A DNA stretch of 5,347 nt, taken from positions 1 to 5,347 of IMG/VR virus record IMGVR_UViG_2698536392_000005; one strand, 5' to 3'. The position numbers were made by a program. Origin of the DNA: a virus. Taxonomy: Duplodnaviria > Heunggongvirae > Uroviricota > Caudoviricetes. Positions within the stretch are counted from its first letter, which is position 1. Each line of letters starts with the position of its first letter. Below are positions 1 through 3,000 of this stretch, in pieces.

Positions 1-3000
1 CAGCCGTACTGCCCTTTGCTCAGGTCTGCCTTCGGATGATTCAGCGTACTCCTATCCTGCACATCATGCAGGCAGTGGTCGGCCGGAATAATATCGTTAT
101 ATCTGCATGCAACCCCACCCGGCGTCACTGTACTGCGGCGCGCCAGCTGTTTAATGCGCGTATCCGGAGCATCATATGAATCCGGCAGCGGAAGCCCTTC
201 ACCGTAAGCCATGGCATTGGACTGCCCGGCCAGTACGATGACGTAGTACCAATCCGGCTCAGTTGCACCACTGACCACCACATCACCTTCTGCTGTAATC
301 GCCTGCATCAGGGTATAAGGGGTTATGGCCACCGGACTACCAAACGGCTGCCAGCCCTCTTTCAGTTTGTGTGTCAGCTTTTCCGCAAGGTCTGACGGCG
401 ACGCCGCCCTGACAACATCATAATGTTTAATCGACATCGAATTTCTCCCGTGTACAGGAACAGAGTTAAAAAGCCGGAACCGGAATCAAATCACAGGATG
501 ACCATCTGCCAGTGGCTGGTCGTAAAAAAAAGGCCGCGCCATGCGCAGCCGGAAATAAAGGGATAACGATGATAGTTTGAGAAAAACAGAAATAACACTT
601 TTGTGGCAAAGCATGGTGCCGGGTGCCTCCCGGTGAATTCAGCCGGTGTCACTGAACCCGCGTCGGCTTGCCTATAACATAATAAATGCTACCTACACCA
701 GTCGCCCCTCCGCACAGGGGGATTCACCATGCAGAAGTGTTTTTAATAAACAGCAAACAAAAAAATCAAGCATTATGCAGGCTGTTTCTTTTTATCACCG
801 GCCACAGCAATACCACAATGCCGCAGACCAGCACCCCATCCGCCAGCACCGACATGATTCTGCTGGTGAAATCCACCATCACCACCAGAAACAGCAGGAG
901 TGCAGCCACAGCCAGGCGCAGTTTTACCGTCACAGGTGATTCTCCAGACGAAGACCCAGAACACCGGCAATCTCTTCCAGCACCTTACACTCTTCCGGCT
1001 CAATTTCGCCTTCTGCCTCCGCAATGGCCACCGCCACATCCAGCACATCTTCCGCTTCACGCGTATCGTGTTTCACATCCTCGATCTCACGTAACGCCGC
1101 ACGACGACCAGTTTTAAAGTTCGTATCCAGCTGACCGATAATGGTTGCGCTCATCGCATTAATTTCTGACGTAAACGCGGACAGCGCTGGCTGATTACGC
1201 AGTACCTGTTCGATCTTCGCTTTCTCGGAAGCCTCACATTCACCATCTGCACAGGCCACCAGGTATGCGGCGTTAATCACCGCCTGTGCCAGATCGCGTT
1301 TTTCAAACTTTTTAATTTCCGTTGCCGCTCTGCGGGCTTTTTTTACCAAAAATACCAAACATCGTGACGTTCCTTTGGGTGGGTGAGCCAACGCCCGGGA
1401 GCGATCTGCCCACAGAGAAAGTCACACTGACCACTCCGTAAGCTCCCCCCGAAAGGCTCTGTGGTTGGTATGCGCCGGGCGTGGCGCGGATACAAAAAAG
1501 GTCCGCAAAAGCGAGCGAGGGAAAATAAGTGTGGTGCGTTGTACTGGGTTCGAACCAGTGACCGATTGCTTAGAAGGCTGGCGTTCTATCCCGATGAGCT
1601 AATGGCGGTTGGTGGCCCTTGCTGGATTTGAACCAGCGACCTGGCGATTATGAGTCGCTCGCTCTCACCACTGAGCTAAAGGGCCGGGCGCAGGATAATA
1701 ACGGTACGTAACTAATTCTGCAATATCATCCGTTCTGACTGACTAAATTCTGAACTTCCCTGACCGTCTGCTCAAAACGCCCGCTCTCCAGCTCAACGCC
1801 AATTGCACGACGCCCCAGCGACATTGCTGCTTTGACGCTACGGACATAAAAAAGCCAGCCACTGGGGGAGGCTGGCAAACTCGTAGAGCAAAATGCTGTT
1901 ACGCAAACTTCGTTACAGGGTCATCCTGCAATACAAAAAATACACAATATTTAGAAAACTAATAGTGCCATGTGCGATTTTTAAGATTTTGTTATTAATT
2001 GTGGTCGCACCTTCCTTTCTGTGTACTTTCCGTATAGCTCCCAGGATGCCGGATACAAAAAACCCGCTCGTCGACGGGCTTAAGCTACGTGGCAAAGCAC
2101 CCCCACTTCACATAATATTCAGTAATTAAATATTAAATCACTTATGGAGATCACGTTTTTATGGCGATAAAATGAACACTCCCGATTTCGAATGGAGTGA
2201 TTCATGATTATTATTAGAACAGAAAACGGCATCGAGAAACTTGATAACTGGGAAGAAATCACATCCAGACCAAACTTTGTTGCCAGTATAGATAAAGGAG
2301 AACAACAGTTTGAGGAAATAATTGGCTACTACAAATTTAAGGAAGAAGTCCACTGTGGCTTAACTGGCTGCAACCAACCACATCAAATGGGTTATATTGT
2401 AAAGACCTCTAGCGGCATTGAAACTAACATCGGCAATAAATGCGGCAAAAACGAATTCGGTGTGGAATTCGGCGAGAATGTTCTTAGCTTCAATAAACTA
2501 ATGCAACTCGAGACCAATCGAGAAATTATCAGAACAGCAAAAAATAAGCTCGAAGAATGGCAAAAAATCATTGAAAACATACGAAATACCAAACCCACCA
2601 TAGATTATTTATCTTCTACTATAGAAAATAGTAAAAACTATAACTACTCTGGCAGGCTTGGCGCAGCAGAAATACGCTTATTGGCAAAATCTCAAACCGG
2701 TATTGTAAGTCTATCAGAAGTTGAAACTGATAAGAAAACCAAAACAATTCTATTTGCAATGAATAAACACATGCGCGAATCTGGAGAAGCAACAAGTGAG
2801 TTCAACATGGGAAAGGTATCATTTATCCATGTGCTTTTACCAGAAAATAATCTTCGTAAGTTTTTTGTTGCGCTCAAAGAAGATCTAAAGAAAATTCAGG
2901 GCATTGATCTGCAAACAACCCCAAGCCCAGAAATTTCCAATGTTGCCCAAATCGCCAGTTCAATCGAAGAACGAATCATACGATTAAAAAACCTGAAACA

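Follow-up and report, generated by a model that had tools for sequence, protein, structure and literature searches.

A seventh adenine in the prophage gene tciA separates the ancestral start from the TerB frame and probably marks an early-stage pseudogene

The phage "tellurite resistance" moron TciA (phrog_632) takes its name from tciA of the P1 tciABC genes, and P1 tciA, tciB, and tciC are non-essential accessory genes (PMC10695390). The function attached to the TciA family is a name given from weak similarity only. Here, we describe a tciA homolog within 5,347 nucleotides (nt) of a lambdoid Escherichia coli prophage, positions 1 to 5,347 of IMG/VR record IMGVR_UViG_2698536392_000005, which we refer to as a whole as the window and read on its minus strand. 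The window gene resembles TciA in its end-to-end profile match and its TciB-like DUF3927 neighbor. Unlike the family, however, the window allele is frameshifted after codon 8, at a run of seven adenines (A7), and carries substitutions at near-invariant positions. A more distant relative is TerB of the ter operon (Klebsiella, PDB 2JXU; PF05099), with which the window gene shares a sequence match, an all-helical AlphaFold model, and two A-D-G...E motifs. In contrast to ter-operon TerB, it stands alone in a prophage without a ter operon, and the aspartate of its second motif is a glutamate.

The lesion in tciA is a classic homopolymer frameshift. It resembles frameshift pseudogenes hidden by start calls, in which a change in an early A run together with a downstream in-frame non-ATG codon yields an unbroken coding sequence (CDS). 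Disrupted open reading frames (ORFs) at A or T runs in E. coli strains have been discussed by Baranov et al. in 2005 (PMC1088944). Unlike the usual hidden homopolymer pseudogenes, the tciA lesion is not strain-specific and has been spread by prophages to hundreds of genomes. The lysine-codon A run at the frame junction also recalls programmed sites, such as dnaX (A AAA AAG), prfB, IS elements, Thermus dnaX (A9), and Shigella mxiE. However, tciA requires a +1 rather than a -1 shift, has no stimulatory element, offers seven bases, and shows relaxed constraint, and the two-frame layout is absent in distant homologs. The literature on tciA, TerB-like, and DUF3927 genes in enterohemorrhagic E. coli prophages provided naming and context only, and we found no description of this frameshift in it. 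The elements of the frameshifted gene are as follows.

930 to 1362, minus strand: the TerB-family gene tciA, downstream of the Q gene and a tRNA gene
1371 to 1375, minus strand: Shine-Dalgarno (SD) sequence AAGGA, 8 nt before ATG 1362 and 12 nt before TTG 1358
1312 to 1362, minus strand: the ancestral ATG (1362-1360) with its remnant ORF, MFGIFGKKSPQSGNGN, 16 codons and then TAA (1314-1312)
1356 to 1358, minus strand: TTG, 4 nt after the ATG, which opens the long frame and is the start of WP_047087898.1 in the Prokaryotic Genome Annotation Pipeline (PGAP)
1338 to 1344, minus strand: the A7 homopolymer (T7 on the plus strand) and frameshift site, one base over the in-frame A6 and flanked by T and G
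930 to 1358, minus strand: the long TerB (TciA) frame, which is open throughout in the window and offset by +1 from the ATG frame, with stop TGA at 932-930
1224 to 1226, minus strand: GAG codon for E46, intact in the window and TAG in many sibling A7 alleles

Removing one A from the A7 run produces a continuous protein of 143 amino acids. Direct reading confirms the coordinates and the main features that an earlier note, made from the sequence alone, had reported: a +1 frameshift relative to the ancestral frame at this homopolymer, an ATG at 1362 behind a good SD sequence, a TerB-like N terminus (MFGIFGKK), and a stop after 16 codons. The note had also called this ATG the only start with a good SD sequence; it missed the TTG at 1358-1356 that opens the long frame. 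The best-matching genomes are annotated by PGAP with an unbroken 142-amino-acid CDS (WP_047087898.1) whose product starts MVFLVKK, and it is this TTG start that hides the lesion. Since the TTG start is the choice of a gene caller, it is not evidence of initiation at that codon. Homologs with a conserved T7 run that start inside the long frame, which the note had named as the observation that would speak against a frameshift, exist only at the level of such annotations.

The reconstructed protein matches phrog_632 over positions 1 to 143 of 143 with 228 bits, while the version starting at TTG matches over positions 3 to 143 with 219 bits. It also matches Pfam TerB (PF05099) with 49 bits against a cutoff of 24.4, the domain beginning at residue 26. 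Because the reconstructed protein aligns with phrog_632 over its full length and with Pfam TerB as well, the join of the two frames is not due to chance. Its alignment to TerB-family hidden Markov models, which the note had recommended as a check, is significant over the whole profile and bears out the proposal of a full-length TerB/TciA member.

We aligned 74 full-length cluster representatives of the family from E. coli, Salmonella, Klebsiella, Serratia, Pantoea, Enterobacter, and Erwinia jumbo phages. The N terminus is highly conserved among these representatives (M1 89%, F2 89%, G3 93%, and K7 100%), and residues 1 to 8 of the remnant ORF, MFGIFGKK, correspond to this family N terminus, MFG.F.KK. 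A single-frame CDS of 432 nt from ATG is present in phages JLK-2012 (A6), Evi, and PPyecE (AAAAAGAAAA), and the context of the SD sequence is conserved in all homologs aligned at the locus. The more distant homologs are all in a single frame from ATG. This comparison of six versus seven bases among homologs, another of the checks suggested earlier, indicates that A7 is a derived one-base insertion and that the ATG frame is ancestral, since the distant homologs are all in frame.

The window allele departs from the family at Y37C, I70M, I84T, D117E, and R125C. Agreement at Y37, I70, I84, and D117 is at least 97% among the representatives (counting Y and F together at position 37 and I and V together at position 84), and R125C falls at a variable position. 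D117 is the aspartate of the second A-D-G motif, present in 72 of the 74 representatives and aligned with an aspartate of the solved Klebsiella TerB structure 2JXU, to which the sequence match has an E value of 2.3e-6 over residues 14 to 137. AlphaFold2 modeling of the in-frame homolog P0001 with 52 sequences gave an all-helical prediction (pLDDT, the per-residue confidence score, 85; pTM, the global fold score, 0.80), consistent with a helical TerB fold. Residues 1 to 20 of this model form a low-confidence extension outside the helical core (pLDDT 56 to 58 versus about 90). By profile, the window gene is thus classified as a TerB/TciA member, but its predicted protein deviates at conserved residues (D117E and Y37C), and its N-terminal MFG.F.KK is out of frame with the body.

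The A7 insertion is a real mutation that is stably inherited and has spread among the prophages of many E. coli lineages. We queried complete-genome records with exact 83-nt sequences around the run in both A7 and A6 versions. Among 647 complete E. coli genome records with a match to the A7 83-mer, 549 contain it exactly; the A6 query is found exactly in 3 records. Carriers of the A7 83-mer include O157:H7 EDL933, TW14359, O26, O103, and O111, as well as cattle, dog, and panda isolates. The exact 142-amino-acid protein of the window is found on 125 contigs in a collection of 15 billion proteins, and its 143-amino-acid A6 form is found on none. Two O157:H7 alleles are represented by at least 1000 A7 contigs versus 4 A6 contigs and by 993 versus 2, and A7 accounts for more than 99.5% of the assemblies of each allele checked. 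A pattern scan of IMG/VR returned 47 A7 matches, 45 A6 matches, no A8 match, and 2 matches with five bases, which differ in their downstream sequence and appear unrelated to the window allele. Only run lengths of six and seven occur on this allele type, with A6 and A7 on different haplotype groups.

Sequence comparisons point to relaxed constraint after the insertion. Fetched loci were collapsed to unique haplotypes, and the 405 nt after the run were compared. Over all pairs, the ratio of nonsynonymous to synonymous variation (pN/pS) is 0.30 in A7 haplotypes versus 0.044 to 0.053 in in-frame haplotypes, where 0.053 refers to all 28 haplotypes and 0.044 to the set that excludes four A7-like cores. 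At matched pS (about 0.04), the ratio is 0.30 for A7 versus 0.10 to 0.12 for in-frame haplotypes. Nonsynonymous and synonymous private variants number 7:1 in A7 haplotypes versus 9:47 in in-frame haplotypes (Fisher p = 1.3e-4). Positions with at least 95% conservation across the family are altered in 14 of 17 A7 haplotypes versus 6 of 28 in-frame haplotypes, and 5 of these 6 carry variants typical of the A7 lineage.

A second lesion, which changes GAG to TAG at codon 46, is present in 6 of 16 pure-A7 haplotypes, and an 83-mer containing the TAG is found exactly in 338 of 650 complete-genome records. The TAG lies 113 nt from the A7 run in every case compared, i.e., in the same gene copy, and PGAP flags a TAG-bearing copy as an "internal stop" pseudogene. 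The downstream gene tciB keeps the same GTG start in the 22 A7 haplotypes examined, with no early truncation in any of them and differences in two at the C-terminal end only. Since tciB shows no early truncation in A7 haplotypes, it adds no evidence either way on polarity. As a separate observation, the TAG allele is almost always found on A7 copies but also on a few in-frame 5' ends (L017 and L046), which indicates recombination within the gene.

We consider it probable that the A7 allele of tciA is an inactivated or strongly down-expressed accessory gene and thus an early-stage pseudogene. Its frame is disrupted relative to intact homologs, and purifying selection on it appears relaxed. Ancestral tciA starts at ATG 1362, behind a well-spaced SD sequence, and encodes a 143-amino-acid protein with the N terminus MFGIFGKK. 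In the window allele, an insertion by replication slippage extended A6, the two lysine codons, to A7. Ribosomes that initiate at the strong ATG therefore stop after a 16-residue peptide, and the TerB body lies in the +1 frame. That body could be reached only by minor routes, namely, initiation at the poorly placed TTG 1358, an occasional +1 slip of the ribosome on the A run, or the rare loss of one base from the transcript, and we estimate that each would yield a few percent at most. With the TerB body accessible only by such routes, the gene would be inactivated or strongly down-expressed and would drift under relaxed selection. Among the three explanations offered by the earlier note (a sequencing error, a genuine pseudogene, and slippage-prone phase variation), the genuine pseudogene fits best, given the relaxed constraint and the second lesion in many siblings.

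The case for lost expression comes from SD spacing and start codon quality. The SD sequence is ideally spaced for the ATG. The TTG lies 12 nt from it, is predicted to be the weaker start codon, and partly shares the initiation site of the ATG. Initiation at TTG is expected to proceed at a few percent of the ATG rate in E. coli. Loss of one tciA copy would be tolerated through in-frame copies in other prophages, and tciB and the remaining late region would stay intact. The in-frame AAAAAGAAAA allele is found exactly in 383 records, often alongside an A7 copy in another prophage of the genome, and O157:H7 PV15-279, 2014C-3061, and FORC_044 each carry both in-frame and A7 copies; it is from these other genomes that we infer tolerance by redundancy.

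Several points weigh against a pseudogene. The TerB frame is open for all 142 codons in the window, the TTG lies 4 nt after the ATG, and the MVFLVKK that it would produce keeps a hydrophobic-then-KK character. Since the TTG product differs within an extension (residues 1 to 20) that lies outside the modeled helical core, it would probably fold. The pN/pS of 0.30 is raised yet not 1, and when compared with in-frame singletons only (4:7), the 7:1 excess in A7 haplotypes is marginal (p = 0.059). Through recombination, in-frame alleles have much of the A7 polymorphism as well, the independent events are few (four conserved-site changes), and a few clonal lineages predominate in both the IMG/VR and the genome samples.

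One alternative is that the A7 allele is functional as annotated by PGAP, with a 142-amino-acid TciA initiated at TTG 1358, in which MVFLVKK replaces MFGIFGKK and the frameshift is a harmless or expression-tuning N-terminal variant. PGAP annotates WP_047087898.1 and its relatives without a pseudogene flag, intact A7 alleles occur on thousands of contigs, and the replaced segment lies outside both the Pfam domain and the confident AlphaFold core. However, the TTG would have to compete with an optimally spaced ATG just upstream, and the destroyed N-terminal motif is 89 to 100% conserved in the family. The roughly 3-fold difference in pN/pS at matched divergence, the 7:1 private changes, the altered near-invariant residues, and the common second nonsense mutation are also at odds with a maintained function, and clones such as O157:H7 arose too recently for an open frame to be proof of selection. 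We therefore regard a functional TTG-initiated TciA as unlikely. It is still less likely, though conceivable, that A7 is a selected, attenuated form of tciA, in which the ATG is diverted to the 16-residue peptide and a small, fixed TerB-frame output is provided by TTG or a +1 slip. An attenuated form could keep a possibly toxic accessory protein low in lysogens and could explain how the allele reached hundreds of genomes while its frame often remained open.

Phase variation, in which A6/A7 slippage at a contingency tract would switch TciA on and off, is very improbable. Both lengths are found on near-identical haplotypes, and rare A6 forms of the O157 alleles exist, but A6 makes up no more than 0.4% of contigs for each allele checked, and the lengths are tied to lineages. 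The tract therefore does not show the length variation of a contingency locus (0 versus 125, 4 versus at least 1000, and 2 versus 993 contigs), the IMG/VR scan contained no A8 and its A5-length matches are apparently unrelated, and seven bases are short for a switching tract. The OFF state also carries further damage, which is unexpected for a reversible switch under selection, and one of the assemblies behind the rare A6 cases differs at other homopolymers as well. The isogenic 86-24 derivatives NADC 6564 and NADC 6565 do differ at the tract (A7 versus A6), with A6 as the rare state. Their only other difference over 5 kb is the length of an upstream poly-G, and the NADC 6564 record contains several "frameshifted" annotations close by. 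The difference in this pair may equally reflect a homopolymer sequencing error or a real slip, and we did not count it as switching.

Programmed recoding, by which +1 ribosomal or RNA polymerase slippage at A7 would supply full-length TciA in a set proportion to the 16-residue peptide, is just as improbable. The A7 clade shows no variation in the run, and AAA AAA A permits full re-pairing of tRNA-Lys in the +1 frame, so that a +1 slip of this tRNA is possible in itself. Measurements in E. coli put non-programmed frameshift suppression at a few percent, although for -1 events (PMC10861913). However, the two-frame arrangement is not conserved in the family, the codon after the run (AGC) is neither a stop nor a slow codon, no SD-like sequence precedes the run, and the RNA downstream folds no better than shuffled sequence (z = +0.21). 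Slippage by RNA polymerase would require a one-base deletion in the transcript, yet E. coli transcripts rarely lose a single base within homopolymers (PMC5574713), and for transcriptional slippage to be efficient in bacteria, about nine A or T residues are generally required (PMC1088944). The relaxed downstream constraint likewise speaks against a programmed site.

A sequencing or assembly error over a genomic A6 has a negligible chance of being correct: three complete genomes matching the window over a 601-nt query (two at 100% and one at 99.8%) do share one CDC-designated strain series with neighboring accession numbers, one of them with other "frameshifted" annotations nearby, and the 86-24 pair differs only at homopolymers, but the exact 83-mer counts and exact-protein look-ups exclude it, as the lesion is not confined to one assembly or platform and A7 comes from many laboratories.

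The pseudogene reading has a mainly practical consequence. Thousands of E. coli assemblies list the gene as an intact "tellurite resistance TerB family protein", and because its ancestral start is out of frame with its body, presence/absence and pan-genome analyses count a probably non-functional copy as functional. The locus illustrates how a nearby alternative start codon can hide a very early frameshift, and it provides a small, clean case of an accessory gene that decays in one prophage while other prophages retain in-frame copies. The underlying biology is ordinary; the main value is an annotation caveat, and no new biological question is opened.

Several rare alleles were observed alongside these. 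In L166 (IMGVR_UViG_2541047429_000016), AAAGAAA replaces AAAAAAA, which retains the frameshifted length with an interrupted run. Its body is typical of in-frame alleles, without the conserved-site changes, and this single contig is probably recombinant. We considered L166 as a stabilized functional +1-frame form but did not use it, as it looks like an A7-type 5' end on an in-frame-type body. The protein clusters P0032, P0041, P0016, and P0104 contain rare tciA alleles with apparent frameshifts at other short A runs within the first 25 codons. One example, MESSKRKPAERLRKLKKFEK..., has the same TTG start and its frame restored at a later A run, and another, ...NAWNLQKKTRR..., has one A fewer in AAAAAGAAAA. 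These alleles are singletons or near-singletons and may be errors.

Beyond tciA, the window contains the following features.

Minus strand, in order: an antirepressor-domain gene, ybcO, rusA, and then the Q antiterminator gene
2204 to 3124, plus strand: an ORF of 306 amino acids of unknown function, between Q and the tRNA and opposite to the late genes
1726 to 1839, minus strand: a fragment of a site-specific DNA methyltransferase with its N terminus missing, called by PGAP in matching genomes
1610 to 1685, minus strand: a single tRNA with anticodon CAT, called tRNA-Met by ARAGORN and tRNA-Ile by PGAP for the identical gene
766 to 933, minus strand: tciB (DUF3927, phrog_1470), whose GTG start overlaps the tciA stop as GTGA
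575 to 761, minus strand: the small RNA STnc100 (Rfam RF02076; 117 bits versus a gathering score of 47), directly downstream of tciB

Together, tciA and tciB are a two-gene accessory cassette. The homologous gene pair of phage JLK-2012 is annotated as tciA and tciB, PHROGs classes both phrog_632 and phrog_1470 as moron, and the GTGA overlap at 930-933 suggests translational coupling. We take the slot of this cassette to be the position held by the Shiga toxin genes in Stx phages. A consensus scan for a promoter of tciA's own found none, and transcription is presumably driven by the Q-dependent late promoter. Further downstream, the best-matching complete genomes carry a sialate esterase gene and lysis genes. 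A 2026 preprint describes TerB genes as conserved neighbors of prophage Pas small RNAs, with STnc100 nearby, and relates STnc100 to the prophage small RNA PasD.

The 306-amino-acid ORF at 2204-3124 matches phrog_7003 (unknown function) end to end with 339 bits, a Pfam search with it returned no match, and it may be a moron or defense gene. The methyltransferase fragment at 1726-1839 is a further decayed gene in the late-region gap occupied by tciA. The tRNA at 1610-1685 is presumably of the lysidine-modified Ile2 type, and its position is taken by an Ile-Arg-Arg triplet in O157 prophages and by Asn-Thr-Gly in JLK-2012. The leader that separates the tRNA from tciA contains a G6 tract (1445-1450, minus strand) located 83 nt before ATG 1362, which could be a true hypermutable tract or an assembly-error hotspot. 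The length of this poly-G is far more variable than that of the A run, ranging from 4 to 12 bases across unique haplotypes, with G5 in strain 90-3040 and G11 versus G12 in the isogenic O157:H7 86-24 derivatives.

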